DNA from: Rhodoglobus sp.
Lineage (GTDB): Bacteria; Actinomycetota; Actinomycetes; Actinomycetales; Microbacteriaceae
NCBI GenBank assembly: GCA_025463515.1
Contig: JAODAQ010000053.1
Span: 62,735 to 126,734, forward strand
Length of the DNA: 64,000 bases
Direction: 5' to 3'
In this document: positions 8,365 to 41,914 of the stretch, one piece after another
How positions within the stretch are numbered: position 1 is the first letter of the stretch
How the letters are laid out: each line of letters starts with the position of its first letter
The notes under the pieces: model-generated
Seen by the model: only the letters and a program-made list of their open reading frames with translations
Told to the model about the DNA's origin: nothing
Database searches by the model: none
Translations under genes and position numbers: made by a program

Positions 8365-8480
8365 TCCGCGTGGGCCGGTGGGCTCGGCTGCTGAGCTGCC
8401 GGCCCATCGCGGATGTCCTGAGTTCGGTGAATGGCGCGAATGGACTGGACTTCCAGGGGTGAGCCGACGAAGAATCCTTG

Positions 8481-25413: not shown

Positions 25414-26186
25414 TCCCAGCTGAATCCCTGGGGGCTCACGGCGCCCCATGCCACTGTCAACTCGCCGAGACGCCACCTCGCTTTCGTCCCCAGGATCGGC
25501 CACGTCTCCTTCATCGACGAGGCCACCGCGACCCATCGCTGCGACGGGCCGTACACACCCAAGGGTGCGTGCACCGCCCACCAGCGATCGAGGTCGAGCA
25601 GATACCGGTGAATAGATTCGCCGGGGACGTTCCTGTGGATGAGAACCTTCGGCAGCCGCTCAGCGACGATGGACGGCTTGTCGAGGTCGGCCAGGCGGAG
25701 CGAAACGGTGAGGGTCTGTGGGCCATCGGCCGTGACATCCACCCAGCTGGCTACCCGGCCGACCTCGTTGCACGTCCCCTCCACAAGCACGCCGCCCGGC
25801 TGCAGTCTCCCCACCATGCCGCGCCACGCGTCGAGCACCTCCGACTCGTCGTACTGTCGCAGGACATTGAGCGCACGGATGACCGTGGGGCTGTCGCCCG
25901 GCACCTCGAACCCGCCGAGCCGGAAGCTCACGCCAGCCCGTGCACTCTTCGACGCCAGCGCGACCCGCGCGGGCTCGATCTCGATGCCGACGACCTTCAC
26001 GTCCGGCCGTCTGTGAGAGAGGCGGTGATACAGCTCGAGAGTGGTGGTGGCGGATGCCCCGTACCCGAGATCCACGACCAGCGGCGTCTCGGCGCGGCGC
26101 AGGGCGGGCAGTTGCGCGATCCACCTGTCGATGCGGCGGAGGCGGTTGGTGCCGGTGGTTCCGCGCGTGACCTGGCCGATGGGCAT
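25410..26186 (-). CDS. Class I SAM-dependent methyltransferase
   Basis: ATG 26186 forms an ATGA overlap with the hepT stop. Motif I is VVDLGYGAS. Confidence 0.7.
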   Translation of the reverse strand: MPIGQVTRGTTGTNRLRRIDRWIAQLPALRRAETPLVVDLGYGASATTTLELYHRLSHRRPDVKVVGIEIEPARVALASKSARAGVSFRLGGFEVPGDSPTVIRALNVLRQYDESEVLDAWRGMVGRLQPGGVLVEGTCNEVGRVASWVDVTADGPQTLTVSLRLADLDKPSIVAERLPKVLIHRNVPGESIHRYLLDLDRWWAVHAPLGVYGPSQRWVAVASSMKETWPILGTKARWRLGELTVAWGAVSPQGFSWD

Positions 26187-26524
26187 CAGAGCGCACGTTT
26201 CGTGCGGGCGAGCTCGCCTATCTGCGGGAAATCCGTGGCGACTGTCTCCCACAGCACATCCAGATCAATGATGTTGTAGTGGTGAACGATCTTGTCGCGA
26301 TTCTTGGCCGCGAATGACCAGACTGGTTCAGAGAATCGTTGAGAGTCGAGCTGGGTCAATTGCTTCGCCACTTCGCCGAGCCGATTGCTGAGCGCCTCGA
26401 ATGCGAGACGGATCGCAATGTCGTCGTCGAAGGCGATGCGCCCTCGCGCGACCAGTTCGGCTGCGGCTTGCAGGGTCTTCTCGAGATCTTCGAGCAAGCC
26501 CTCGGCTCGATCGTCCGCGTTCAT
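26186..26524 (-). CDS. hepT: HepT (DUF86/HEPN) toxin
   Basis: 112 aa with the R-x4-H motif (NRDKIVHHY). ATGA overlap with the upstream mntA. Confidence 0.8.
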   Translation of the reverse strand: MNADDRAEGLLEDLEKTLQAAAELVARGRIAFDDDIAIRLAFEALSNRLGEVAKQLTQLDSQRFSEPVWSFAAKNRDKIVHHYNIIDLDVLWETVATDFPQIGELARTKRAL

Positions 26525-26991
26525 AAGGGGATCGACTGGTCGAGCATCGCTTTGTCCCGGGGTCGAGTCAGATCGAGCGCTGAGCGAGTTATGACATCCA
26601 CGGGACGCCCGAGTACCTGTTCCAGGTCTGTCTCGAACCCCGCGATATCGAACAGCGAAGCACCTGGCTTTGCATCGACCAGGAAGTCGATGTCGCTGTC
26701 GAACCGTTGCTCGCCGCGCGCGACGGAACCGAACACGGCGACGTGATCGAAGCCCCATACGGTGCCGAGGCGTTTGATCAGGTCACGTCTGGACTGAATC
26801 TGCTCTAGGCCTACTGTTCCTGCCGCGCTGTTCTTCAGTTCCAAGTACACCGAGTAGGGGAGTATCGCGGCCTCTGGCTTGCGGTGCGAGCCGATGATTG
26901 CGACGTCGATCTGGTGAGCCGTCATCCCATCCACGAGCGCGGAAAGACTGCTGCGGGCCTCCGCCATTCCCATCACCCGATCGTCCATCAC
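26521..26991 (-). CDS. mntA: MntA-type nucleotidyltransferase antitoxin with an N-terminal Phd/YefM-like domain
   Basis: N-terminus AEARSSLSALVD...IGSHRKPEAAILPYSVYLEL is Phd/YefM-like. NTase motif GSVARGEQRFDSDIDFLV. The start could instead be an internal ATG. Confidence 0.8.
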   Translation of the reverse strand: MMDDRVMGMAEARSSLSALVDGMTAHQIDVAIIGSHRKPEAAILPYSVYLELKNSAAGTVGLEQIQSRRDLIKRLGTVWGFDHVAVFGSVARGEQRFDSDIDFLVDAKPGASLFDIAGFETDLEQVLGRPVDVITRSALDLTRPRDKAMLDQSIPL

Positions 26992-28954: not shown

Positions 28955-29386
28955 ATGGAGTCATGGGCGAGCAGCCCAGCAGTCCGCAAGTCGATGCTGG
29001 GCAACAAGCGACGCGACACGCAGATCGAACTGCGCGTCCGCCGGCTGCTCCACGCCCGTGGCCTCCGCTACCGAGTCGACTACGCGCCCCTCGACAAGCG
29101 CCGCCGCGCAGACATCGTCTTCACCCGCCAGCGGGTCGCTATCTTCATCGACGGCTGCTTTTGGCACGGATGCCCCCTGCACTACATCCAGCCCAAGACG
29201 AACGCCCACTACTGGTGGCCGAAGATCGAGCGCAACATCGCCCGCGACCTCGAGAACACGCACAGACTCGGTGACGCAGGGTGGGCGGTCGTGCGGTTCT
29301 GGGAGCACGAGGACCCCGACGAGATCGCCGACTCGATAGCGGAACTGATCGCGAGCCTCCGCGCCCAGAGCAGCCTCGCGTCCTAG
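28955..29386 (+). CDS. vsr: Very-short-patch repair endonuclease Vsr
   Basis: [32 protein letters not shown]...ADIVF...[13 protein letters not shown]...W.KI..N..RD...L...GW.V.RFWEH. ATG 28955. Confidence 0.85.
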
Positions 29387-29409: not shown

Positions 29410-30156
29410 ATGACCCACACGCTCATCCTGCTCCGCCACGGCAACTCCGACTGGAACCAGAAGAACCTCTTCACCGGATGGGTCGACGTGCGCCTCAGCG
29501 ACCAGGGCGTCGCCGAGGCGAAGCGCGCGGGTGAGCTCATCGCCGAGTCGGGCCTCAAGCCCGACATCCTCTACACGAGCGTGCTGACCCGCGCGATCCA
29601 GACGGCAAACATCGCCCTGGATGTCGCGGACCGCGCCTGGCTTCCGGTCAAGCGGTCGTGGCGCCTCAACGAGCGTCACTACGGCTCGCTCCAGGGTCTG
29701 GATAAGGCCGAGACCCTCGAGAAGTACGGCCCCGAGAAGTTCATGGAGTGGCGCCGCAGCTTCGACGTCCCCCCGCCCCCTCTCGACGACGACGCCGAGT
29801 ACTCCCAGGTGCACGACGAGCGCTACATCGGAATCGACGGCGAGATCCCGCGCACCGAGTCCCTCAAGATCGTGATCGACCGGATGCTCCCCTACTGGGA
29901 GTCGGACATCATCCCGTCGCTCGCCTCAGGGCAGACGGTCCTGGTCACTGCGCATGGCAACTCGCTGCGCGCGCTGGTGAAGCACCTCGACGGCATCTCC
30001 GACGAGGAGATCGCCGAGTTGAACATCCCGACGGGGATTCCGTTGGTGTACGAACTCGACGACGGTTTCAAGCCGACCGGTCCAGCGAAATACCTCGATC
30101 CCGAAGCCGCAGCCGCGGGTGCTGCGGCCGTGGCGGCGCAGGGGGCCAAGAAGTAG
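29410..30156 (+). CDS. gpmA: 2,3-bisphosphoglycerate-dependent phosphoglycerate mutase
   Basis: [32 protein letters not shown] and AHGNSLRAL motifs. Confidence 0.95.
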
Positions 30157-33100
30157 TCTCGCAGTCAGGATTCCAACCCGAATCGAGTCCCACTTGTTCA
30201 GTCTTTGTTGCTTTTTCTGTCCCAACAACGAGTTCGAGGCGCGGACGCTAGACGACTCTTGTGCCAGTTGCGGGCGCCAGTACGACTATCCCCTTGCGCA
30301 TGCGCCGGAACGGATCGGGACCTACGAAATCGTCAAGCCGCTTTCTCGCGGCTTTTATGCGGCAACTTTCGTGGCAAAGTATGGACAGCTAGGCAACCTT
30401 GTCGTGCTCAAGGTAGCGCCAGTCGACCTCTATAGGTTCTTTGGGAAAGACTTTCCAGCAGAGTGCACACGCCACCAAGAAGTAGCTGATGGCAGTGAAC
30501 ACTTGGTTCAGATTCGGGACTATCTCGACGTGGACGTCGACTTTGGCGATGCGACCCTGCGTTGCCATGTCGCGGTCCTGGACTACGTCAAGGGAGACCC
30601 CTTCGATGAGTTCCTCGATTCAGCGCCGTCCTTGGAATCGCTCGGCCAAGTCGCCATCGACCTCCTGCAGCTTCTGCAGGAGCTGAAGGATGCGCGCTTC
30701 TATCACAACGACCTGCACGACCAGAACATCCTCGTCCAGTCCCTATCCGGAAGCGCTCGACGACACGGTGCTCTCGACCCGTCTATCCGCGCGATTGCGA
30801 TCGATCTTGGTTCGACCGCGTCTGTCGATCGACAGGACCAGCAACATCTCGGTGATCTCCAGGCAGTTGTTATGCATCTTTTCGGGATCGCCCAAACGGT
30901 CCTAGAGTCGGCCACCATCGACACCTCGGAATATCGGATCGCTTATGCGATCGACGAAGTAAGTCACATGTTGTCACCGGACCGTGCAAGTCAGCGAGAT
31001 CCAGATTTCGATGGGGCGATAAGAAGGATTCGAGCTGGCTTGGATCCTGCGCGAAGTGGATGGTCAACGCCGCAGGTTCTTCAGCGGTTTGACGATTCTT
31101 ACAACGCTCAAACACTTCACCCTTGGCTATTGCCGCGCCTGCTAGTCGACCCGGAGGGGGAGTGGCTCGCAAGCGTGAGTGTTCGGGGTCCTCAGCTGAT
31201 TACGGGCATGCGTGGTTGCGGAAAGACGATGCTTCTTCGCGCGATGGACATTCACGCGCGCATCATCCAGCACGAGATTGACAGCAAACCGTCCATCGCG
31301 GACGCGCTTCAACACGACGGCTACGTGGGGCTGTACGTCTCGTGTACGCGTCTTCTTGACCCCCTCGGACAGGTCGGAAGCGCTATGCATGAGCCGTACG
31401 CGCGACTCCTTGTCGCGTACGCCCGCGAGGCATGTGCAGGACTTCAACACATCGATGACCGTCAACCTGGCGCGATCCGGGACGACGCGGCATCGGAGAT
31501 TGGCGACGTTTGTGCGTCCGCCCTCAACGGGGCTGACCTGTTGCGTGGTGCGAGCAGTCTCACGGAACTCGAGCAGAGATTGCAGCGAGTTCTCAGCTCG
31601 TTGGATCGGGGCGAGTTGACCTTCAAGATGCTCAAGAATCCTGCGATCGCTTTTCCGCAGCTAGGCGAAGCTGTCATAGCTGCCGTCCCTGGTCTATATG
31701 GCAGCCAAGTCCTGTTCTTGCTCGACGACGTGTCTACGCGGCACGTCTCAAAGGAAGACGTCGATGAACTGATTTCGGCGCTTCTATTCAGCCATCCAGG
31801 ATCAGCCTTCAAGATGACGACGGAAGCACAGACATTTCTTCGTTCCCCCGGTCAAATCGAGATAGCTAGATCCGGTCGCGACTACCAAACGTTCGATCTC
31901 GGGGCCGAGGTGAACGCGAAGCTGAGAGACAAGAACTCGTCGGAAGGGCTCGCATTCGTGAGCCAGATCCTTGAGAATCGCGCGGAGCATTTTGGCTTGC
32001 ATCCGACCCATAAGCCCATGCAGCTGTTGGGTGACGCAACGCTCGAATCCATCGCCCAGAACATAGTTTCCACTTCCAAAACATCACGTGAAAAGAAGTC
32101 CATCTACCGGGGACTTTCGGCTCTTAGGGCTGTTTGCGTCGGCGACATCGGCGACGTCATTAGTATTTACGACCTGATGCTTTCGAAGGCTCGCGATCGC
32201 AGGGAGATGCCCATTGCCGCCGCTACCCAATCCGAGGCGCTCCAAGAGTTTTGCGCGCGCCGGTTGTATCAGGTGAACAGACGTGACGGTCGCTTGAAAG
32301 ACTTCGCCCTGTCCTTTGCTGGTGCTGCTCATGAACTGCTCGTTCGATCCTCGGCGAACGGTGGACGACTGCGGCAGTACAACTCGATCTACGTTCGGCT
32401 GTCCCCCGATGCAACCTCGACGCAATATGAGCAGATCCGCCAACTTGTGGACGCTGGAGTTTTTGTACTGCGCGGTGGCACAGAGACCCCGCGCACAAAG
32501 TCGCGGGATCGCGATCCGATGCAGCAGTTCGCATTGACCTTCCGTAAGCTATTCGGACTCTCAAGCTTCATCGGCCTGGCGGAGCGCGACCGCTTTGAGC
32601 TGTCGGGGCCTGAGTTGGCCGAGTGGCTAGACTCCCCGTCGCGGGGGAGGGAGATACTGTTGCGCAACCTGGGAGGAGATGTTGACTCCGTTGCGAACGA
32701 CGAGGAATCCGGAATCGAGGTGACCCTGAACTCGTCGCCACTTGCCCTTACTGATCGCCCATCAGAGTTGAGTTACCCCGCCGAATCGATACCTTCGCCA
32801 CCCCAGAATCCTCCGGCAGATCCCTTCCTGGACGGACACCGTCCGTCGGGATGGACTCTCTCCGATGCACAGCTGGAGGAGCAACCCATTGAACACGTCG
32901 TTTTGGGACTTGGATTTGAGGAGCGCGCACTCGACTCAGCCAAGGAGCTGCTGGAAAGGACCCGGCCCAGCAGCGCAACATTGGTTAGGTATGAGTTGCA
33001 GGGCTTGGGCGCTGAGATCGAGAAGTTGGTGCGATCAAAAGTTGGCCATGTCGAAGTCATTGACTACGCTGCTGCTTCTGGGAGGACGTGGACTCCGCGC

Positions 33101-33790
33101 TTCGACGGTCTGACCCTTGTCGATGCAAGCGGCCTCGCAAAAGGGGCTTTGTTCAGGGCTGTTTTGGAAGCACTCAAGACGGGATCAGTAGTTGTCTCTT
33201 CGACTAGCGCACAGCACTACTATCCTGCGGACAAAGAGATCGAGGAGGTGCTCTCCGCCAGCAACGATGACTCGTTCGAATTGGTCCAGCGCTTGAACGA
33301 CCTCTGGTCAGGAGAGCAAGGCCCCTACACCTCTACGGAGCTACTTGGGAGGCTTTCTGATGGTTCCAAGCCACGTGTACTAGTTGCGGCTTCTTCGGCA
33401 AAGCCCGAGCGCCTTCTTTCGCTGCTTGAGGCTCGCGAATCAGACCACGTTGCTCTATCAGTCACGACCGCCAACAGCTCTCGTGGGGATTTGGCGAGGC
33501 TGGCAGCGGCGGTTGCCGTTCCCGACAGTCAAGCGGAGACAATTGATGCCAATGACCCATTGCAAGAACTCGAGTTCATAGCCCGCCAGTTCGCCATATA
33601 TTCGCCGAAGAGCGGATTCGAACTTGAGGTTGGTCTCACCGGTTCGAAAATGCAAACGGTTGCTTGCGCCGTTGCTGCAGCATGCCTTCCCTTGACCAAG
33701 GCCTGGTATACATCGCCGGCAGTCTTCGATCCGATCCGATTTAGCTCCGGGGTTGGGTCACGTCGTACGTATTTGTTCCGGATTGGCTAA
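30119..33790 (+). CDS. Large multidomain protein: Zn-ribbon + protein-kinase-like + P-loop NTPase + tandem Rossmann-like C-terminus
   Basis: 1223-aa ORF. CxxC...CxxC at aa 31-51. Kinase-like [16 protein letters not shown] and IDLGS. Walker A GMRGCGKT (31205-31228) and Walker B VLFLLDD (31709-31729). Start uncertain: GTG 30119 overlaps gpmA by 38 nt; the alternative is TTG 30194. Confidence 0.8.
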
Positions 33791-33888
33791 AGGCGCAGCG
33801 CTTTTCTCGCCGTGCAAATGACCCTATTGGTTGAGACTTAGTCGCGGCAGGCGTCCAGTACTCTGGCTTGACTGATCCTGGGAGTGCA

Positions 33889-35523
33889 ATGTCTGAGTTG
33901 GAACCGCTCATTCTGACCTTCGACCCGCAGACCGTGGACCATCTGGGCGCGAAGATGTACTCACATCTACCGAATGCGCTCGCGGAACTTGTCGCAAACT
34001 CTTACGACGCGGATGCCAAACACGTTCGTGTCGTCGTCGAAGGCAATGGCTCCATCTCGATCACGGATGACGGGCATGGAATGTCCAGGGAGGACGTACG
34101 GGAGAAGTACTTGCACATCGGCAGGAATCGTCGCACTGATGAGAGTGGCCTAACGGAGAGCGGCCGTCGCCAAGTGTCCGGGAAAAAGGGTCTTGGCAAG
34201 TTGGCGCTTTTCGGAATCGGCAAACGAGTCGAGTTGAAGACGACTCGAGCTGGCTCTTCTGCCCGAACACAGATAGTTCTCGACTATGACGAGATGAAGC
34301 AATCCACTGGGCCGTACCGGCCAACAGAAACGCAAGCTTCGATCTTGGAAGGTAGGCATGGAACCGTCGTGCGACTGAGTCAGCTCAAGAGATCCAGTGC
34401 GGTTTCCGCGGCGAGCGTGGCCAGAAGCCTTGCGCGACTATTCAATTATGTTGACGAGGAATTCGAAGTAACGATCGTTGGTCCGGAAGGGACCGAGTAT
34501 CGAGTCACGCCCGAGTCACGACTTGATGCAATCGAAGTGGAGTTCAGCTGGACCTTTCCAGACGACGGCGGCGTCGACAATCCTGACTTGAGGGATCTTG
34601 GTGTGGGTGGTCGTGTCGTATCAACGCCCAAACCAGTTCCACAGTCAATTCGCGGCATAGCACTTTATGTGAACGGACGTCTGGCGAATGAAGCTGACTA
34701 CTTCGACTCCTCGGCGTCTAGCTATGCGTACTCGTACTTGTCTGGATATCTGAACGTCGATTATCTAGACCGTCTCGAGCCTGATGTGATCGCGACGGAC
34801 CGAAGAGCCCTTGACTGGGGGCGCGACGAGACCATTGACCTTCGTGTGAAGCTGACCGACTTTGTTACCTGGATAGCGGGTGACTGGCGCCGCCGGCGCC
34901 GCGAAGCTAGCGCTGTGCGAGCCACGGAGGTATTGGGTGGCTCGACGGAAGAGTGGGTTTCCTCCATCAAGACTGAGGAAGGTGCTGTCGTCCGCGAACT
35001 TGTGGAGGCAATCGCGTCAGAAGAAGTCGAGATATCCGCCGAGCAACAGGGCGCGCTACTTTCCCTCATGAAACGCGCGGTGCCACCGCACGCCGAGTAC
35101 ACCTGGCGCCACCTACACCCTTCGATCCAGGACGCTACGCGTGACCGCTACCTAATAGACGATTTTTACGGTGCCGTCCAGGAAGGCATTAAGCGATACG
35201 TGAACGCCGCGCGCGATAAGTCGGGTGTTCCTCACGATGAAGCCACCAAGATCGTGGTGAACGCATTTGGCGAGAGTGGACGACTCCACGTTTTCCAACG
35301 CTTCACGGAGAGTTTCTCTGAGGCGACAGCAAAGAATGTCGAGGAAGGGCAGAAGCACGTTTCCATGGGAATCGTGGCTGGCTTCAGAAATCCGATGGCA
35401 CACGAAGAAGTGCTTCGATTGCATGAGAGCGGCGCATTCACGTTCGACGACTGCTTAGATGCGCTCAGCATTGTTTCGCACCTCATGCGGCGACTCGACG
35501 AGGCCGAACTGATTGTCGAGTAA
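33889..35523 (+). CDS. GHKL (MORC/MutL-like, HATPase_c_3-type) ATPase fused to a TIGR02391/Hypoth_Ymh-like C-terminal domain
   Basis: Bergerat motifs: N box ELVANSYDA, G1 DDGHGM, G2 GKKGLGKLALFG. C-terminus has HPSI...FYGAVQEGIKRY...GFRNPMAHE (R-x4-H). ATG 33889 is preceded by GGGAG; the track ORF starts at TTG 33868. Confidence 0.8.
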   Translation: MSELEPLILTFDPQTVDHLGAKMYSHLPNALAELVANSYDADAKHVRVVVEGNGSISITDDGHGMSREDVREKYLHIGRNRRTDESGLTESGRRQVSGKKGLGKLALFGIGKRVELKTTRAGSSARTQIVLDYDEMKQSTGPYRPTETQASILEGRHGTVVRLSQLKRSSAVSAASVARSLARLFNYVDEEFEVTIVGPEGTEYRVTPESRLDAIEVEFSWTFPDDGGVDNPDLRDLGVGGRVVSTPKPVPQSIRGIALYVNGRLANEADYFDSSASSYAYSYLSGYLNVDYLDRLEPDVIATDRRALDWGRDETIDLRVKLTDFVTWIAGDWRRRRREASAVRATEVLGGSTEEWVSSIKTEEGAVVRELVEAIASEEVEISAEQQGALLSLMKRAVPPHAEYTWRHLHPSIQDATRDRYLIDDFYGAVQEGIKRYVNAARDKSGVPHDEATKIVVNAFGESGRLHVFQRFTESFSEATAKNVEEGQKHVSMGIVAGFRNPMAHEEVLRLHESGAFTFDDCLDALSIVSHLMRRLDEAELIVE

Positions 35524-35533
35524 TCCCACGTAG

Positions 35534-36607
35534 TTACAGCGCCTTAGCAAGAGAGCGACCGATCGCGGCACCAAGAGGGATTGGAACCGCATTGCCAATT
35601 TGGCGGGCTATTGCTGTTTTGGACCCCACAAAGCGATGAGATGGCGGAAAGCCCTGAAGAGTCGCGGCTTCATAATGTGTGATCGCCCGGTTGGCCGTGG
35701 GGTGCAAATAGCGGCCCTTTTCTGGTTTGAAGAACTCGGTCCTGATGGTGACCGAAGGCTTGTCTAGACGAAGCCTCCCCATGACGTCTCCCGAACCAGA
35801 ATTGTGATTAACCCAACAAGGTGCAAGAAGGTGCGGTGGGAGATTCTTCCGATTCCCTCCCGGAGGTATCTCTTTGAACCTAGCGCGCGAAAGTGATGAA
35901 TAGTTGCGCCCAAGATGGAGCTCATCTGCGGTGAACGAGCCTTCGAACGTGTGCCCGTCGAACTCATACTTTCGCCCCTGCGGGAGTTCCACACCATTCA
36001 CTTCGTGAGGAATCCCTGCGAAAGCTTCGGCAACATTGATGTGATTGCCAAAATGTGTCAATTCAGGGAATCCAGGAAACTCAAGGTCACGGTGGTGACC
36101 GATCAAGACGGCGCGTTTTCGGGCTTGGGGAGCACCGAAATCCGCGGCATTGAAAATTCTGTGCTGGAAGTCGTAGTCCTTCAGGAACCCATTCGTGACC
36201 GCTGCTTGAAACTGCTCAAATTGCGGCGACTTCGCGAATGCGGCCACGTTCTCGACGACGAAATACTTCGGCTTGGTTGCGAGGATGGCGTGCCCGTATT
36301 GCTCCCAAAGGGAGTTTCGCTCGTCTTCTACTTCTCGCTTGCCAAGAGTCGAGAAGCCTTGACATGGCGGCCCTCCGACTATGACATCCACGTGGGTTGG
36401 GACATCCCCTGATCTGAGCCAGTCTTGGATCGGAAGCGCTTGTACGATCCCTTGTCCGAATGTCGCCTCATAGCTGGCCGCGGCCGAGCGGTCCCATTCA
36501 ACTGCGGCAATGGACTTGAATCTGGAGGAGGCGGCATGCAGGCCAGCGGTCATGCCGCCTGCTCCAGCGAAGAGATCGAGCACTCGAATAGCGGAATGAG
36601 AGCCCAT
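35534..36607 (-). CDS. dcm: DNA (cytosine-5)-methyltransferase
   Basis: Motif I DLFAGAGG, motif IV GGPPCQGFS, motif VI VVENV, motif X RQIGNAVP. Convergent with the GHKL gene across a 10-nt gap. Confidence 0.9.
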   Translation of the reverse strand: MGSHSAIRVLDLFAGAGGMTAGLHAASSRFKSIAAVEWDRSAAASYEATFGQGIVQALPIQDWLRSGDVPTHVDVIVGGPPCQGFSTLGKREVEDERNSLWEQYGHAILATKPKYFVVENVAAFAKSPQFEQFQAAVTNGFLKDYDFQHRIFNAADFGAPQARKRAVLIGHHRDLEFPGFPELTHFGNHINVAEAFAGIPHEVNGVELPQGRKYEFDGHTFEGSFTADELHLGRNYSSLSRARFKEIPPGGNRKNLPPHLLAPCWVNHNSGSGDVMGRLRLDKPSVTIRTEFFKPEKGRYLHPTANRAITHYEAATLQGFPPSHRFVGSKTAIARQIGNAVPIPLGAAIGRSLAKAL

Positions 36608-37028
36608 GTATTAGGAGTGTAGCCGGCATGAGAGGTCCCTGGGGACATAATGCGAATCGCGTCTACAAACAGTGACTAGCCCAAAGCGTAGGGCAGCGCG
36701 TCATGCGCGTCGAGAGCCCATTTTCCTGCTTCGTGACAAAACTACGGAGGTCGTTGAACCTACCGGAAGGTGCGAGCTGGCCTGGGATAGTCGCCAGCTG
36801 TGCGCCCCGACCTGGGTGTAAAGGTGTGGACGCGCAGGAGCTACGGTCGTCCGTCGGCACGCCGCAAGCATGGTGCGCGGCCGCCCGCCGTCGGCGAACC
36901 GCGCCGCCGCCCCGATGATGCGGTCCGGGGTGGGGAAGCGTTGGGCGCCCATGTCCTGATCCTCCTGATCGATGAGGGCGACTGCGGTCTGTCCGAACGA
37001 TGACGCCGGCTGCCGATACCCTGACCCC

Positions 37029-40000
37029 ATGTTCCTGCTCGATGGCACGGTCGTCACGAGCCCGAGCGACCTCACCACCGCCGCGCACTGCGAGTTCGCG
37101 TTCGCCCGGCAGCTCGACGCGAAGCTCGGGCTCATCGAGATCGAGCGGGTGCCGCGCGATCCGCTCGAGGCCAGGGCCGCAGAGCTCGGGGACGAGCACG
37201 AGAACCGGTGGCTCGAGTACTACCGGGCGAACAAGAGTGTTGTCGAGATCGAGCGGCCGAGCATCCGGCGCGATGCACTGAGAGAAGCCGCCAAAAAGAC
37301 GGAAGAAGCGTTCCGCAACCAAGCAGAGGTCGTATTTCAGGCCACATTCTTCGACGAGTCAGACCCCACCGCACCGATGATCGGGTTCGCCGACTTCATC
37401 GTGCGGCAGCCCGACGGGCGGTATCGGGTACAGGATACGAAGCTGGCGCGGTCCGTGAAGGTGACGGCGCTGCTGCAGCTCGCGGCGTACTACGACCAGC
37501 TCGTGCGGCTGAACGTGCCGGCGGATGAGACCGTCGAGCTGATCCTCGGGACCGATGAGGTGGTGCCGCAGGACGTGAACGACATCCTCCCGGTGTACCG
37601 GAAGCGCAAAGCGCGGCTACACCAGATCGTGGCCGAGCGAGCGGCGGCGACGCAGGCAGCGCAGTGGGGCGACCGCCGGTACTCCGTCGACGGGCGGTGT
37701 GAGTTCTGTGAGCCGGAGGTGGAGGCATCCCGAGACCTGTTGCTTGTCGCCGGGATGCGGCTGGCTCAGCGGGCGAAGTTGATTGAGGCGGGCATCGTCA
37801 CCATCGACGACCTCGCAGTCTCAGAGGATGCGCCGGCCGGTCCCAGGCAGCAGGCCGCGCTGCAGCTGCAGGCGACAGGGCCGATCCCGCCGTTCGTCAT
37901 GTTCGCGCCCGAGCTCATCGGGCACCTGCCCGAGCCCGACCCGGGCGACATCTTCTTCGACTTCGAGGGCGACCCGCTCTACCGCGAGGAGCACACCTGG
38001 GGCCTCGACTACCTGTGGGGGCTCGTCGATCGCGATGAGACGTTCACCGCGTTCTGGGCACACGACTTCGAGGCCGAGCGAAAAGCACTGGAGCAGTTCC
38101 TGGCGTGGGTGACGGAGCGGCGCAAGCAGTACCCGAACATGCACATCTACCACTACGCCTCCTACGAGCGCACCCACCTGCTCACCATCTCCGCGCGGCA
38201 CGGCGTCGGCGAGCACATCGTCGACGGCCTGCTGCGGGATAACGTGCTCGTCGACCTGTATCCGCTGGTGAAGAAGACCGTGCGGGTGGGCGGCCGCTCG
38301 TACTCGATCAAGAAACTCGAGCCGCTGTACATGGGGGAGGAGCTGCGGGAGAGCGAGGTCGCGAACGCCGCGGCATCCATCGAGCAGTACGACCTCGCGA
38401 TGCGGTCGGAGCCCGCCGAACAAACCAGGCTGCTCGAGACGATCGCCGACTACAACCGGTACGACTGCGTCTCCACGCTGCGGTTGCACGAGTGGCTGCT
38501 GGCCCGGGCGAGCGAGTTGGGCGTGCAGCCCGGCATGTACGCCGAGCCTGTGGAGGAGCGGCTGCCGTTCGAGCCGAGCATCCTGGCCGGGCAGCTGCTG
38601 GCGCTGGAGGACGGGTCCGGCGCCTTCGCGCTCGCCTCCGCCGCCGTCGACTACCACCGCCGCGAGAACAAGAGCTTCTGGTGGGAGCACTTCGCCCGCC
38701 TCGAATACCCGGTCGAAGAATGGCAGGATGCCCGGGGCGTATTCCTCGTCACGAGCGGCGAGGTCGTGTCCGAGTGGTTCACCAAGACCTCGGCGAGCTA
38801 CCGGACGGTAAAGCTCCGCGGCGAGTGGGCCCCCGGCAGCGCCACCTCCACCGGCGAGGCGTTCACGCTCTACGACCCGCCCGGCCCCTACCGCGACCCC
38901 CGCATCGGCGGCGGGCTGCGCCTGCCCGTCAACGCCTCCAGCGTGTTCCCCGACGAGGACGACCCCGACGTCGTCTACGTCACCGAGCGCTGCCCCGGCG
39001 GCCAAGAGCCATGGGCCCGGATGCCGCTGGCCATAGCCCCCGGACCGCCTCCCCGCGCCGCCTCCCTCGACCAGGCCATCGAGACCGTGGGCGCGCGGCT
39101 GTGCGAGGATCCGTGGCCGAAGTCCTCGATCGGCGACATCCTGCGGCGCACCCCGTCGCGCACGAAGTCGGGCGTGCTGAGCCCGGCCAACGGCGACGTG
39201 CGAGCGGCCGTTGTCACGAGCATCCTCGATCTCGATGATTCGTACCTCGCCGTGCAGGGCCCGCCCGGTACCGGCAAGACCACCCTCGCCGCCACCGTGA
39301 TCACGACGCTCGTGCGCGACCACGGCTGGCGCGTCGGCGTCGTCGCGCAGTCGCACAAGGTGGTCGAGAACGTGCTGCGCGCGGTGGTGAAGGCCGGGCT
39401 CGACCCCGACCGGGTCGCGAAGGCCCCGCCGACCGGCGGCAGCTACTCCGACGAGCCCTTCTTCGAGCTGCAGAAAGACACGCACCAGCTGTTCGCGCAG
39501 CGCAAGCACACCGGCTATGTCATGGGCGGCACCGCCTGGGACATGACCAACACCAAGCGCGTCGGCCGCCTCCAGTTCGACCTGCTCGTGATCGACGAGG
39601 CCGGCCAGTTCTCGCTCGCCGCGACCGCCGCCGTGAGCGTGAGTGCGCGCAATCTGCTCCTGCTCGGCGACCCGCAGCAGCTGCCGCAGGTGAGCCAGGG
39701 CACCCACCCGGCGCCGGTCGACCAGTCCGCGCTCGGGTTCATTGCCGACGGCCACGCGGTGCTGCCGCGCGAGTACGGCTACTTCCTCGCCAAGAGCTGG
39801 CGCATGCACTCCGCGATCACGGCGCCCGTCTCCGCCCTGGCCTACGACGGCGCCCTCCGTTCAGCCCCCAGCGCAGACGCCCGGATGCTCGTAGGCGTCG
39901 CTCCCGGACTCCATCCCCTCCCCGTGGCGCACCACGGCAACGCCACCCACTCCGTCGAAGAGGCGGCTCATGTCGTCGCCCTCGTGGAAGCGCACCTCGG

Positions 40001-40358
40001 CCGCGACTGGAACGGCACGCCCCTCACGCAAGACGACATCATCGTGGTCACGCCCTACAACGCGCAGGTCGAGTGCATCCGACTCGCGCTCGCCGACTAC
40101 CCCGGCGTGCGGGTGGGCACGGTCGACAAGTTCCAGGGGCAGGAGGCCGTGATCTCCATCGTGTCGCTCGCGGCGTCGAGCCCGGTCGACGTTCCGCGCG
40201 GGCTCGACTTCCTGCTGTCGCGCAACCGCCTCAACGTGGCCATCAGCCGGGCTCAGTGGGCGGCGTACCTGCTGTACTCACCCGAGCTGACCGACTTCCT
40301 GCCGTACACGGCGGAGGGCGTGGCCGACCTGAGCCGCTTCATCCGGCTGGTGTCTTAG
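37029..40358 (+). CDS. RecB-like PD-(D/E)xK nuclease + RNase-H-like exonuclease + SF1 (Dna2/Upf1-like) helicase fusion (TM0106-family-like)
   Basis: GFADFIV...QDTKLA...QLAAYY (37392-37490), FFDFEGDP (37944-37976), Walker A GPPGTGKT (39258-39281), LLVIDEAGQ (39582-39608), VDKFQGQE. ATG 37029 (MFLLDG...) is preferred over ATG 36972. Confidence 0.85.
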   Translation: MFLLDGTVVTSPSDLTTAAHCEFAFARQLDAKLGLIEIERVPRDPLEARAAELGDEHENRWLEYYRANKSVVEIERPSIRRDALREAAKKTEEAFRNQAEVVFQATFFDESDPTAPMIGFADFIVRQPDGRYRVQDTKLARSVKVTALLQLAAYYDQLVRLNVPADETVELILGTDEVVPQDVNDILPVYRKRKARLHQIVAERAAATQAAQWGDRRYSVDGRCEFCEPEVEASRDLLLVAGMRLAQRAKLIEAGIVTIDDLAVSEDAPAGPRQQAALQLQATGPIPPFVMFAPELIGHLPEPDPGDIFFDFEGDPLYREEHTWGLDYLWGLVDRDETFTAFWAHDFEAERKALEQFLAWVTERRKQYPNMHIYHYASYERTHLLTISARHGVGEHIVDGLLRDNVLVDLYPLVKKTVRVGGRSYSIKKLEPLYMGEELRESEVANAAASIEQYDLAMRSEPAEQTRLLETIADYNRYDCVSTLRLHEWLLARASELGVQPGMYAEPVEERLPFEPSILAGQLLALEDGSGAFALASAAVDYHRRENKSFWWEHFARLEYPVEEWQDARGVFLVTSGEVVSEWFTKTSASYRTVKLRGEWAPGSATSTGEAFTLYDPPGPYRDPRIGGGLRLPVNASSVFPDEDDPDVVYVTERCPGGQEPWARMPLAIAPGPPPRAASLDQAIETVGARLCEDPWPKSSIGDILRRTPSRTKSGVLSPANGDVRAAVVTSILDLDDSYLAVQGPPGTGKTTLAATVITTLVRDHGWRVGVVAQSHKVVENVLRAVVKAGLDPDRVAKAPPTGGSYSDEPFFELQKDTHQLFAQRKHTGYVMGGTAWDMTNTKRVGRLQFDLLVIDEAGQFSLAATAAVSVSARNLLLLGDPQQLPQVSQGTHPAPVDQSALGFIADGHAVLPREYGYFLAKSWRMHSAITAPVSALAYDGALRSAPSADARMLVGVAPGLHPLPVAHHGNATHSVEEAAHVVALVEAHLGRDWNGTPLTQDDIIVVTPYNAQVECIRLALADYPGVRVGTVDKFQGQEAVISIVSLAASSPVDVPRGLDFLLSRNRLNVAISRAQWAAYLLYSPELTDFLPYTAEGVADLSRFIRLVS

Positions 40359-41165: not shown

Positions 41166-41184
41166 CCCAGAGGCCGGGAGCCGG

Positions 41185-41218
41185 GGTTTCGATACGGCCG
41201 CGGACGGCCTACTCAACC
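41185..41218 (-). repeat. REP-A unit (reverse)
   Basis: GGTTTCGATAC-GGCCGCGGACGGC-CTACTCAACC. Confidence 0.85.
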
Positions 41219-41224
41219 CGCCGG

Positions 41225-41258
41225 GGTTTCGATACGGCCGCGGGCGGCCTACTCAACC
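41225..41258 (-). repeat. REP-A unit (reverse), tandem with the previous unit
   Basis: GGTTTCGATACGGCCGCGGGCGGCCTACTCAACC, identical to 52909-52942. It ends 2 nt before the phoU stop. Confidence 0.85.
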
Positions 41259-41260
41259 CG

Positions 41261-41914
41261 CTAGTTCGAGGGGGAGACCCAGTCGCCGGTCGCCAGGTAC
41301 TGGACCTTCTTGGCGATGGAGACCGCGTGGTCCGCGAAGCGCTCGTGGTAGCGCGACGCGAGGGTGGCGTCGACCGTGTCGACGGCCGCGCCCTTCCAGG
41401 TCTCGCCGAGCACCTTGTCGAACACCGAGAGGTGCAGCGCGTCGATCTTGTCGTCGTCGTTGCGGATCTCCTCGGCGAGCTTGACGTCCTCCGTCTTGAG
41501 GAGCTCGACGAGCTTGCGGGCGATCGCGACATCCAGTTCGCCGAGCTGGGCGAACGTGCCGCGCAGCGACTTCGGGACGACCTTGTCGGGGAAGCGGTAG
41601 CGCGCGAGCTGCGCGATGTGCTCGGCCATGTCGCCCATGCGCTCGAGCGACGCGGAGATGCGCAGCGCAGAGACGACAATGCGGAGGTCGCGGGCGACGG
41701 GCTGCTGGCGGGCCAGGATGTTGATGGCCAGCTCGTCCAGCTCGGCGGCGGCGGTGTCGATCTTCTCGTCGTCGGCGATGACCGTCTCGGCGAGGGACAC
41801 GTTGGACTCGTTGAAGGCTCGCGTCGCGTTCTCGATCGACTCGGCCACGAGGGTCGAGATCTCGACGAGGCGGTCCTGCACCTCTCGCAGTTCCTGCTGG
41901 AATACTTCGCGCAC
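41261..41914 (-). CDS. phoU: Phosphate signalling complex protein PhoU
   Basis: 217 aa with two PhoU repeats (E/DxxxD motifs, e.g. RMGDMAEHI and RFADHAVSI). Confidence 0.95.
   Translation of the reverse strand: MREVFQQELREVQDRLVEISTLVAESIENATRAFNESNVSLAETVIADDEKIDTAAAELDELAINILARQQPVARDLRIVVSALRISASLERMGDMAEHIAQLARYRFPDKVVPKSLRGTFAQLGELDVAIARKLVELLKTEDVKLAEEIRNDDDKIDALHLSVFDKVLGETWKGAAVDTVDATLASRYHERFADHAVSIAKKVQYLATGDWVSPSN

Follow-up and report, generated by a model that had tools for sequence, protein, structure and literature searches.

The question raised by the segment at 30.1-36.7 kb of the window, as we call the whole stretch of 64,000 nucleotides analysed here from a Rhodoglobus sp. 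contig (JAODAQ010000053.1), is whether its three genes, here named A, B and C, form a single defence system not previously described, as an earlier note on this DNA had proposed, or whether they are known parts that have been brought together.

A low-GC island of three genes

Open reading frame and composition analysis delimits this segment as a low-GC island which holds exactly three intact genes. The GC content over positions 30000-36500 is 0.55-0.60 against 0.63-0.72 in the flanks and, at 100-nt resolution, the fall runs from about position 30150, next to the gpmA stop at 30156 (NF010718, 429 bits), to about 36750-36800, where the earlier note had also placed it. The GC3 values of A, B and C are 0.63, 0.62 and 0.58 respectively, whereas gpmA has 0.84 and the helicase gene on the other side 0.91; on the strength of these contrasts the island is foreign, that is, horizontally acquired. 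Gene A (plus strand; longest reading frame 30119-33790, 1223 aa from a GTG at 30119) is followed after 78-98 nt by gene B (plus strand, 33868-35523; 551 aa from a TTG at 33868, or 544 aa from an ATG at 33889), and B converges with gene C (minus strand, 35534-36607, 357 aa) across a gap of 10 nt, so that the reading frame coordinates bear out both the gene count and the spacings first given.

The surroundings had been described as defence-flavoured and all three of the neighbours concerned were identified: a HepT/MntA pair upstream (26186-26991), a Vsr gene, and downstream a gene with PD-(D/E)XK, RNase_H_2 and SF1 helicase domain calls (36972-40358). A Pfam domain search of the island returned no Z1, AIPR, PglX or PglZ, in line with the first reading, and no CRISPR array was found in the window. 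Among the named systems of PADLOC v2, NCBIfam (June 2026) and Pfam, none accounts for the cassette as a system.

The methyltransferase and Vsr

Gene C (35534..36607, minus strand) is a complete Dcm-type C5 cytosine DNA methyltransferase, as had been claimed, which scores 195 bits against PF00145 and 163 bits against TIGR00675 (cut-off 100.65) and retains motif I (FAGAGG), motif IV with the expected C82 (PPCQ, PC82Q), ENV, QARKR (QxRxR) and GNAV. The methyltransferases closest to it adjoin homologues of either B (67.5-70% identity) or A (61-66%). The Vsr T:G mismatch endonuclease (28961..29386, plus strand; TIGR00632, 124 bits, cut-off 97.85; PADLOC Vsr) lies outside the island, 24 nt upstream of gpmA, and has a host-like GC3 of 0.89. 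It is probably the functional companion of C, and is 63% identical to the Vsr which adjoins an A homologue in Microbacterium (L064).

Gene B: a GHKL ATPase with a HEPN domain

In its 544-aa form (33889..35523, plus strand; alternative TTG start at 33868), B is a paraMORC-type GHKL ATPase joined to a Ymh-family HEPN domain (Pfam HATPase_c_3, 4.5e-22; Hypoth_Ymh, 2e-18), an architecture found in 674 homologues. The GHKL ATPase and a transducer-like middle domain take up approximately residues 1-310 (33889..34818, plus strand) and carry the motifs ELVAN44, D67DGHG and GKKGLGK. The AlphaFold2 model (pLDDT 83.6) was matched by Foldseek to the N-terminal and middle domains of Hsp90/TRAP1, to the MORC2 ATPase with DNA (9cdj) and to SMCHD1, each with a probability of 1.0, and a profile search of the PDB gave MutL and MORC2/3. 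The C-terminal feature that had been described as an R-x4-H tail can now be assigned to a HEPN domain (residues 414-543, 35107..35496, plus strand; PF09509; TIGR02391, 51.8 bits, cut-off 39.45), within which R507-N-P-M-A-H512 forms part of FRNPMAHE, the R and H being invariant among 34 homologues. The PADLOC models Aga_HEPN and PD-Lambda-3_B match the same region.

The architecture of B is already known from the literature. GHKL proteins with Hypoth_Ymh (R.NmeAIP-type) were described in restriction-modification (R-M) neighbourhoods in 2008, among putative restriction endonucleases (PMC2441816), and paraMORC proteins with Ymh HEPN domains in R-M contexts in 2013 (PMC3710099); a role like that of PrrC or RloC has been proposed for this architecture (PMC2441816, PMC2292703, PMC3710099).

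Gene A: a CARF, kinase and ATPase protein

Gene A encodes a Zn-ribbon, a minimal kinase, an ORC/Cdc6-like AAA+ ATPase and two CARF domains. The whole protein aligns to the PADLOC model PDLC01925 'CARF6--CARF_STK_AAA' with 1312 bits (residues 29-1217 on profile positions 4-1181 of 1187). More than 928 full-length homologues share 42-56% identity with it. Family profiles and homologues begin at a TTG at 30194, 37 nt past the gpmA stop, which is therefore probably the true start, giving a protein of 1198 aa (30194..33790, plus strand).

All of the domains lie on the plus strand. The N-terminal Zn-ribbon, read from the sequence (CCFFC...CASC, residues 30-52, 30206..30274), has a nearly invariant C31 and invariant C48 and C51 among 21 homologues. 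The kinase-like domain (about residues 63-300, 30305..31018) has VLK98, E115, HND198LHxxN203 (here HNDLHDQN) and D229LGS, motifs which are invariant in the homologue alignment. Its own matches to Pfam Pkinase and ABC1 are weak; homologues bear precomputed matches to PF00069, PF07714, PF03109 and PF01636 and a kinase profile searched against the PDB found StkP and Staphylococcus aureus PknB (4eqm, 3.8e-5). The short C-lobe, the lack of an APE segment and the weak ABC1/Bud32/APH-like matches make this an atypical kinase domain, for which a protein substrate would not be assured. The AAA+ domain (residues 326-632, 31094..32014; PF24389, 1.2e-18, 67.6 bits, cut-off 27) has an invariant Walker A (GMRGCGK369T) and Walker B (LLD536D537VS).

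The Zn-ribbon, kinase-like and Walker NTPase regions had been recognised before; the remaining C-terminal part, earlier called Rossmann-rich, is resolved by AlphaFold2 and Foldseek as tandem CARF domains (residues 907-1223, 32837..33787), CARF-1 at about 924-1077 and CARF-2 at about 1086-1221, with the signature loops D1002-A-S-G-L-A-K1008 and L-T1174-G-S-K1177, of which the motif residues are invariant. The model is confident (pLDDT 93.9, pTM 0.93) and its top match, the E-values being modest, is Can1 (6sce_A; E 4.6e-5, probability 1.0, TMq 0.51), followed by TtCsm6, Sis0455, Cam1 and Cad1, a ring nuclease being included among these. Like Can1, A has an intramolecular CARF pair in the predicted model; the pair found in A occurs only at the C-terminus of proteins, which are about 1200-1270 aa when full length. 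Judging by the PADLOC model name, the family is already catalogued in a CARF census. That census (Makarova et al. 2020) may also describe the neighbourhood of A.

Gene neighbourhoods of A and B

An A-centred census of 80 genomes and the window gave 81 loci, in which a methyltransferase cluster was found 71 times, a gene for a thymidine-phosphorylase-like (TP-like) enzyme 59 times, Vsr 40 times and a B-like GHKL gene 10 times. In the 57 loci that extend 5 kb or more to either side of A, a C5 methyltransferase lies within 10 kb of A in 52 (91%), from 12 or more phyla, and the TP-like gene is coupled with A in 74%, with a median gap of 4.5 nt. This enzyme resembles thymidine/pyrimidine-nucleoside phosphorylases and keeps the STGG and S-x-x-KK motifs; it is the most constant partner of A, to which it is usually coupled translationally, but is absent from the window, as it is from the closest trio relative of A. 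The restriction-type partners vary, from GHKL proteins and Z1-AIPR cassettes to BREX, NaeI and a UvrD-nuclease. That a C5 methyltransferase stays close to A even as the accompanying nuclease or ATPase is exchanged indicates that A depends specifically on m5C modification. The island had been contrasted with GHKL-Z1-AIPR cassettes; Z1 and AIPR are indeed missing here, yet the A family accompanies precisely such cassettes elsewhere, and the contrast is not supported.

The genes are truly co-conserved. The trio recurs in one metagenomic lineage (L081/L082; identities of 56% for A, 58% for B and 70% for C) despite a rearranged order, B>A><C; three further close relatives of A (L165-L167, 51-53%) adjoin GHKL and methyltransferase pairs, as most of its nearest relatives do; and in nine other loci the stop codon of A is overlapped or immediately followed by a GHKL gene. 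Together with the foreign composition common to all three genes, this would favour one obligate three-component system in which A and B act only together and the methylase self-marks. However, in a B-centred census of 80 metagenome loci neither A nor the TP-like gene was found once, whereas a methyltransferase, usually adjacent and often with Vsr, was present in 26 of the 29 loci with a full-length B; L083 and L084 likewise hold B and a methyltransferase without A. From the other side, 54 of the 81 A loci lack any GHKL partner, similarity to the B-like GHKL was seen in 15 of the 57 well-flanked loci and the HEPN type of B in only two, and operons of methyltransferase>TP-like>A stand alone (L072 and L013, for example). 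These censuses show two modules and not one obligate trio, and the single-system reading is accordingly unlikely.

Equally doubtful is the opposite view, that two functionally independent defence genes or modules merely happen to be neighbours within a defence island and that A is unrelated to B or C. The autonomy of each elsewhere fits such a view, as do the other defence-type genes nearby, HepT/MntA for example, and the integrases or resolvases near A in 10 of the 81 loci. Against it stand the association of A with C5 methyltransferases across phyla while partners change, the tight spacing or overlap of A, TP-like, methyltransferase and GHKL genes on one strand, and the retention of the GHKL and methyltransferase pair in the closest A lineage.

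We therefore favour, as somewhat the more probable account, a defence islet of two separately conserved modules which converge on one m5C methyltransferase. A defence-type cassette around a C5 methyltransferase, as first proposed, is supported; the domain calls of the earlier note were right, and every catalytic residue it named in the three proteins is in place. Known parts are combined here in a new way, rather than making up a wholly new system; both modules are catalogued, their activities being predicted from sequence.

Putative roles of the two modules

The first module, B and C with Vsr nearby, would be an R-M-like or abortive-infection pair. C would mark host DNA with m5C and B would act as the effector, a MORC/MutL-like ATPase clamp ending in the HEPN domain. 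Unmarked invader DNA, or subverted methylation or restriction, may trigger ATP-driven dimerisation, whereupon two HEPN domains would meet to form an Rx4H RNase site, leading to RNA cleavage and growth arrest. A DNA-cleaving role of B is possible given its N-terminus, which resembles the GHKL domain of genuine and putative type II restriction endonucleases (NF050001, BbrUII/HgiDII, 215 bits; PADLOC REase_II, 3e-26 and 5e-24). That B and C are a classical type II R-M system, with B a GHKL-assisted DNA endonuclease, as REBASE-style annotation of relatives of R.NmeAIP and R.HgiDII would have it, and A an accessory regulator, is nevertheless quite improbable. B does adjoin a methyltransferase and belongs to a class placed among putative endonucleases (PMC2441816), but the likeness extends no further than the GHKL domain (positions 3-221 of the 659 in the profile) and scores far under the 550-bit cut-off, AlphaFold2 and Foldseek gave no PD-(D/E)XK, HNH, GIY-YIG or PLD fold in B, and characterised members of the family of HEPN domains with Rx4H are mostly RNases (PMC3710099).

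The second module, A, would be a signalling hub, and the least probable reading is that A and the TP-like enzyme, found so steadily with Dcm and Vsr and with a kinase like small-molecule or atypical kinases, serve m5C-linked housekeeping or regulation (for example of 5-methyl-pyrimidine nucleosides from methylated DNA, alongside Vsr repair), since A is patchily distributed (about 149 of 185,579 species representatives), foreign in composition here, linked to BREX, Z1-AIPR, NaeI, UvrD-nuclease and integrases, set in a CARF and HEPN context typical of immunity, and without the TP-like gene in this window.

Under the two-module account, the Can1-like CARF pair of A would bind a nucleotide-type ligand, the AAA+ domain would provide ATP-dependent assembly or DNA binding, and the minimal kinase would write the output. 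In this way A may gate or amplify m5C-linked defence through phosphorylation of B, of C, of further proteins or perhaps of a small molecule. Crosstalk between A and B may be absent, as the two are linked only in a minority of loci, and without its usual TP-like partner this copy of A may be crippled, or wired in another way. No cyclase was found among the annotated recurrent neighbour clusters of the A-centred census, and the CARF ligand is thus probably not a CRISPR cOA. By analogy with RtcR, an attractive candidate would be RNA ends with a 2',3'-cyclic phosphate, as HEPN cleavage yields; CARF regulators attached to restriction systems, and 2',3'-cyclic phosphate RNA as their possible ligand, have been discussed previously (PMC11090510).

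Gene content and composition of the island

Three genes occupy a low-GC island between gpmA and a downstream helicase gene, and the open reading frames described in the earlier note held up in their coordinates, spacers and convergence. Gene A (30119-33790, plus strand; 1223 aa by ORF analysis) encodes a Zn-ribbon/kinase/AAA+ protein with two CARF domains, gene B (33868-35523, plus strand) a paraMORC-type GHKL-HEPN(Ymh) protein of 551 aa, or 544 aa from the ATG at 33889, and gene C (35534-36607, minus strand; 357 aa) a Dcm-type C5-methyltransferase (MTase). The spacer between A and B is 78-98 nt, B and C converge with a gap of 10 nt, and every residue named in that note was found in the three products. 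GC content is 0.55-0.60 over 30.0-36.5 kb compared with 0.63-0.72 outside, and the fall previously placed between the gpmA stop and about 36.8 kb was recovered at 100-nt resolution, running from 30156 to approximately 36.75-36.8 kb. The GC3 values of A, B and C (0.63, 0.62 and 0.58) contrast similarly with those of gpmA (0.84) and the downstream helicase gene (0.91), and this compositional break from the flanks is a clear signature of recent foreign origin.

The upstream neighbour, gpmA, is full length right to the island border. A search for integration scars found no convincing direct repeats flanking the island and no tRNA near it, the sole tRNA of the window being at 8480, and a promoter and terminator scan gave counts at or under shuffled expectation. 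An ORF at 36701-37135 (minus strand), considered as a Vsr or controller gene, was without a family match and had a non-coding-like codon GC, and was taken as spurious.

Architecture of the CARF-kinase protein

Protein A matches end to end the PADLOC family PDLC01925, “CARF6--CARF_STK_AAA” (E = 0, 1312 bits; residues 29-1217 against profile positions 4-1181 of 1187), and retains all of the family-invariant kinase, Walker and CARF residues. The PADLOC and NCBIfam libraries searched assign no system, ligand or function to this family. Its annotation is also misleading, as PGAP names the members “hypothetical protein” and the NCBI record of A itself (P0001, from a Rhodoglobus sp. MAG) is a 972-aa protein called from too late a start, so that it lacks the Zn-ribbon and the greater part of the kinase domain. 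The start is most likely the TTG at 30194, since both the family profiles and the homologues begin at the Zn-ribbon.

Residues 69-247 gave weak Pfam matches to Pkinase and ABC1, and a profile built from 21 homologues found bacterial Hanks kinases in the PDB (PknB, 4eqm, 3.8e-5; also StkP). The motifs VLK98, E115, HND198LHxxN203 and D229LG are all present and invariant in the family; the C-lobe following DLG is short (~70 aa) and without an APE segment, and there are further weak matches to Bud32, ABC1 and APH-type kinases. “Kinase-like” is therefore the fair label, with the substrate left unassigned. An ORC/Cdc6-like AAA+ domain follows at residues 326-632 (Pfam, 1.2e-18, 67.6 bits), in which the Walker motifs GMRGCGK369T and LLD536D537 are likewise present and invariant.

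The C-terminal 317 residues (907-1223) were modelled with AF2 from a 61-sequence alignment, which gave two Rossmann-like domains in succession (pLDDT 93.9, pTM 0.93). The top Foldseek match in the PDB was Can1 (6sce_A; E 4.6e-5, probability 1.0, TMq 0.51), a cA4-activated nuclease with two CARF domains in one chain, followed by TtCsm6, the Sis0455 ring nuclease, Cam1 and Cad1, all at probability 1.0. Both halves carry invariant CARF-type loops (D1002-x-S-G-x-x-K1008 and T1174-G-S-K1177), and the two domains, lying in one chain as in Can1, could form a single ligand pocket. When 1.84 billion representatives were searched exhaustively with phmmer, this CARF pair was found in just 229 clusters, C-terminal in every case and with full-length carriers of ~1200-1270 aa. 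The pair, detectable by sequence within its own family alone, is essentially exclusive to one protein architecture.

The GHKL-HEPN protein, the methylase and Vsr

Protein B comprises a GHKL ATPase domain (HATPase_c_3, 4.5e-22, 79 bits) and a C-terminal Hypoth_Ymh domain (PF09509, 2e-18, 66.8 bits, cut-off 25; TIGR02391, 51.8 bits, cut-off 39.45). The GHKL motifs E40/N44, D67xGxG and GKKGLGK are all present, and the FRNPMAHE segment corresponds to the HEPN Rx4H motif (R507-x4-H512), the R and H of which are invariant in 34 homologues. Foldseek matched the AF2 model (pLDDT 83.6) to the Hsp90/TRAP1 N-terminal-middle region, the DNA-bound MORC2 ATPase and SMCHD1; past the GHKL-middle module a long helix leads into a helical HEPN domain, and no DNase fold was found in the model by this search. 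The fold comparison suggested earlier supplied folds for B and for the A C-terminus, and both proteins belong to families already catalogued.

Identification of B as a full-length BbrUII/HgiDII enzyme was rejected, as the match to NF050001 (215 bits) is well under the cut-off of 550 and covers only profile positions 3-221 of 659, leaving the C-terminal domain unaligned; this match and the PADLOC “REase_II” match are both confined to the GHKL domain. The partner of A in locus L036 does align over the full length of NF050001, also under the cut-off (299 bits). A close precedent is found in the paraMORC-Ymh class. R.NmeAIP has been recorded as a GHKL + Hypoth_Ymh protein (Orlowski & Bujnicki, 2008, PMC2441816), paraMORCs were defined in restriction-modification (R-M) operons with Dcm and Vsr (Iyer, 2008, PMC2292703), and Ymh HEPN-paraMORC fusions were described from R-M neighbourhoods with a proposed PrrC/RloC-like role (Anantharaman, 2013, PMC3710099). 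B shares with this class the GHKL domain, the transducer-like middle domain and the Rx4H-bearing Hypoth_Ymh HEPN domain, as well as its setting beside a C5-MTase and often Vsr, but differs from most members in adjoining a CARF-kinase giant. No experimental study of the class was found in the literature searched, and it stands as a computational prediction.

C is a complete Dcm-type methylase (PF00145, 195 bits; TIGR00675, 163 bits; both over the cut-off) with motifs I, IV (PCQ), VI (ENV), VIII (QxRxR) and X (GNAV) at residues 13, 80, 119, 161 and 338. Its nearest relatives beside B homologues are 67.5-70% identical. The idea that C belongs only to B was abandoned, because C-like MTases of 61-66% identity adjoin A homologues without B (L064, 66%; L018, 62%; L015, 61%). 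A 17-nt inverted repeat (36522-36567, 94% complementary, 12-nt loop) lies within the 5' end of the C coding sequence.

The Vsr gene (28961-29386, plus strand) ends 24 nt upstream of gpmA (ATG 29410), 0.8 kb upstream of the island, and between it and C, which is the window's one Dcm gene, lie gpmA, A and B. Its GC3 is host-like (0.89), which together with its position suggests either that Dcm/Vsr genes occupied the gpmA-phoU site at an earlier time or that Vsr was acquired separately.

Distribution of A homologues

With each GTDB species represented by a single genome, 149 relatives of A were found and 80 loci were retrieved, spanning at least 12 phyla as listed: Acidobacteriota, Actinomycetota, Pseudomonadota, Bacteroidota, Planctomycetota, Verrucomicrobiota, Desulfobacterota, Nitrospinota, Bacillota, Saccharibacteria, Zixibacteria and Balneolaceae. 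Clustering covered every ORF in these loci and in the window (81 loci). A C5-MTase was present in 71, a thymidine-phosphorylase-like (TP-like) gene in 59, Vsr in 40 and a B-like GHKL gene in 10. Where A was well flanked (at least 5 kb on both sides, n = 57), an MTase lay within 10 kb in 52 loci (91%), the TP-like gene in 42 (74%, median gap 4.5 nt) and Vsr in 32. A search of plasmids yielded a sole full-length homologue, on a 512-kb Loktanella replicon, a single match which leaves plasmid-borne spread of A unsupported.

The TP-like gene (~403 aa) is directly upstream of A with stop and start overlapping (e.g., L013, 8782-9999; L072, 8788-9999). It encodes a divergent homologue of thymidine/pyrimidine-nucleoside phosphorylases (Glycos_transf_3, 4e-7; TIGR02644, 113 bits, far under cut-off) without a match in PADLOC, and retains STGG and S-x-x-KK motifs, which correspond to the phosphate- and base-binding motifs of thymidine phosphorylase. 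In L072 and L013 the order MTase>TP-like>A makes up a tightly spaced operon that stands alone, the flanking genes being on the opposite strand or separated by gaps. Most members of the family have this overlapping gene, whereas A in the window is without one: when the 59 TP-like genes were used as tblastn queries, nothing in the 64 kb was matched except Vsr. As no remnant was detected and gpmA is intact to the island border, the TP-less state is not a truncation artefact; it is common to the window and L081, and L167 also lacks the gene. TP-like is a frequent associate of A and not a strict defining feature of the family.

The remaining partners of A vary. GHKL-Z1-DUF4420-AIPR cassettes lie directly beside A in 14 of the 81 loci. 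Among the others, HgiDII-like or Ymh-type GHKL proteins occur in 10 loci, UvrD-PD-(D/E)XK proteins in seven, GHKL-histidine-kinase proteins with receiver partners in seven, BREX PglX/PglZ/BrxL in four, ABC ATPases in four and NaeI in three as well as on the Loktanella replicon; no variable partner was recognised in 33 loci. A GHKL gene is directly 3' of A on the same strand in nine loci besides the window, with overlapping ORFs in five of them (L036, L037, L049, L052 and L073). Such direct juxtaposition suggests, but does not prove, crosstalk of A with MORC-type partners such as B.

Two smaller observations were made among loci of A homologues. In NaeI-type R-M loci TP-like is absent and a ~167-aa protein adjoins A (L051, 13637-14140; L057, L079, L080; L168, 10620-11114) for which no Pfam, PADLOC or NCBIfam family was matched. 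Downstream of a close A homologue in L165 (11569-15227) there are thymidylate-kinase, second Glycos_transf_3 and SHMT-like genes, which resemble a pyrimidine-modification or salvage cluster.

Distribution of B and recurrence of the three genes

The B family gave 674 matches, many of them in Microbacteriaceae and named merely “TIGR02391 family protein”. In Salinibacterium (L083) B and an MTase converge as in the window (B> <MTase), and in Subtercola (L084) the order is MTase> B> Vsr>; A is absent from both. Relatives of B were taken from 80 metagenomic loci. At 29 of them the GHKL-middle-HEPN architecture is complete, and an MTase was found in 26 of these, mostly adjacent, the other three ending at contig edges. 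Neither A nor the TP-like gene occurred in any of the 80, among them the 11 full-length-B loci that extend 5 kb or more to each side.

The three genes were found together again on one contig, L081, which carries the nearest A homologue (P0002, 56% identity), a B homologue (P0134, 58%) and an MTase 70% identical to C in a shuffled order (B> A> <MTase <SNase Vsr>). The next relatives of A with usable context lie in L165 (MTase>GHKL(700)>MTase>hyp>TP-like>A), L166 (MTase>GHKL(695)...TP-like>A) and L167 (MTase>GHKL(668)>A), while L169-L171 are too short or have different neighbours. The co-conservation expected of a single system was thus only partly recovered: the trio is conserved in one lineage, but A is missing from all 80 B-centred loci.

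Discussion

Two modules that have one methylase in common give the best reading of the cassette. The first, B and C with Vsr upstream in native-GC DNA, stands alone in other genomes and is of a type predicted earlier on computational grounds. The second is A, a member of a catalogued CARF family for which a neighbouring C5-MTase is the one near-constant requirement. The earlier note had proposed an undescribed defence system from the three genes together, and no named system in the PADLOC, NCBIfam or Pfam libraries searched covers them; in the cassette a CARF-kinase module without TP-like is joined to one of paraMORC-HEPN/Dcm type, a new combination of catalogued parts. C5-MTases are few per genome, and since they accompany A so regularly across phyla while its nuclease partner changes, we infer from the raw counts that the association goes beyond the crowding of defence islands. 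This co-occurrence points to a functional dependence of A on m5C marking.

Several known systems share features with this arrangement. The Dcm/Vsr-linked GHKL-Z1-DUF4420-AIPR cassettes and other MORC/paraMORC R-M systems have in common with the window a C5-MTase, Vsr and a GHKL ATPase. Z1, DUF4420 and AIPR are missing here and the GHKL protein bears HEPN instead, so that the domain search agrees with the earlier reading of the island as free of Z1 and AIPR; the contrast drawn with such cassettes is weaker than supposed, however, as A homologues adjoin them elsewhere. B also resembles in concept PrrC/RloC, anticodon nucleases that guard R-M systems, as a predicted NTPase-regulated HEPN RNase that would form a second line behind a modification system, differing in that its ATPase is GHKL and theirs ABC. 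RtcR-like CARF regulators attached to restriction systems (CoCoNuTs), with 2',3'-cyclic-phosphate RNA proposed as the signal (PMC11090510), share with A a cyclase-free CARF sensor in a restriction setting. They are sigma54 activators, however, whereas A is a kinase/AAA+ fusion and the window is without a McrBC-type component. Pgl/BREX type 2 (the Ser/Thr kinase PglW, the methylase PglX, the ATPase PglY, and PglZ) likewise combines a protein kinase, a P-loop ATPase and a DNA methylase in a phage-resistance locus. In the window the methylase is of C5 and not N6 PglX type, the kinase and the ATPase share a chain with CARF sensors, and Pfam and PADLOC gave no PglX, PglZ or BrxL match among the three island genes, in keeping with what had been noted of PglX and PglZ.

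CARF sensors are known almost exclusively in one role, in which they receive cyclic oligoadenylates (cOA) made by Cas10 and nucleases are switched on. In spite of the fold of its C-terminus, A is probably not a cOA-signalling ancillary effector of type III CRISPR or CBASS. Unlike Can1, Csm6, Cam1 and Cad1, whose outputs are nuclease, pore or deaminase, A carries a kinase and an AAA+ ATPase, and there was no linked cyclase (Cas10, CD-NTase) or array at the loci examined: none of the annotated recurrent neighbour clusters of the 81 A loci is a cyclase, and no CRISPR-like array was found in the window. With neither linked, the ligand is likely to be a non-cOA molecule. Membership of MADS (MAD6, E 0.024, 13 bits against a cut-off of 460; mad8 limited to the P-loop), Druantia, Mokosh or PD-T4-6 was dismissed as just generic kinase, P-loop or MTase similarity.

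A mechanism may be outlined in which C would mark self DNA and B would act as a DNA-clamping GHKL dimer, ATP-driven dimerisation pairing its HEPN domains into an RNase site. B might then be the effector, restriction-like or abortive in kind, and act on unmarked DNA or once the modification system is subverted, while A could join a CARF-bound nucleotide signal to AAA+ assembly and signal via its kinase. At this locus 2',3'-cyclic-phosphate RNA, the expected HEPN product, would be an attractive ligand for A; for most relatives, an alternative is that the signal is produced or removed by the TP-like enzyme, which could also be an effector that depletes nucleotides.

It is conceivable, though we consider it rather improbable, that A, a C5-methylase and usually TP-like form the core of a widespread, unnamed and cyclase-free immune system, in which m5C would distinguish self, the CARF pair would respond to a signal other than cOA and the output would be phosphorylation; the window would then contain a TP-less variant with a MORC-HEPN RNase recruited as effector. 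Candidates for the signal are RNA ending in a 2',3'-cyclic phosphate, or else a metabolite of pyrimidine or 5-methyl-pyrimidine type which TP-like makes or consumes. A Dcm-TP-like-CARF-kinase operon is not recorded as a system in PADLOC v2 or NCBIfam, and the literature searched, which did not include the primary CARF census, contained nothing relevant on CARF6, CARF with phosphorylase or methyltransferase, TP with Vsr, or GHKL with HEPN and methyltransferase. Should the reading of A as such a core be true, no earlier pathway would have led from CARF to a kinase, nor would CARF sensing have been functionally coupled to DNA methylation before.

The locus presents a well-conserved tandem CARF on a kinase/AAA+ protein, tied to C5-MTases and Vsr across at least 12 phyla, and as a compact set of three genes it offers a testable entry to non-CRISPR CARF sensing and possible phosphorylation signalling. 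It is also a natural setting in which to ask how a MORC-like clamp reads methylation and controls an RNase, a role predicted for MORC-HEPN fusions since 2013 and one which bears on eukaryotic MORC biology.

Other features of the window

A HepT-like RNase (PF01934, 2e-7) and MntA-like nucleotidyltransferase (PF01909, 2e-13) pair lies at 26186-26991 (minus strand) within a second, smaller patch of lower GC (~0.61 over 26.0-27.5 kb), and is probably an independently acquired toxin-antitoxin pair. Downstream of the island, a 1128-aa PD-(D/E)XK + RNase_H_2 + SF1 helicase protein (36972-40358, plus strand; TIGR03491, 160 bits) has partial MkoA/MkoC matches in the helicase region only, and its host-like GC3 of 0.91 places it outside the low-GC segment. 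Further on, two tandem copies of a 40-nt unit (41180-41261, 97% identity) end at the end coordinate of the phoU ORF (41261-41914, minus strand).
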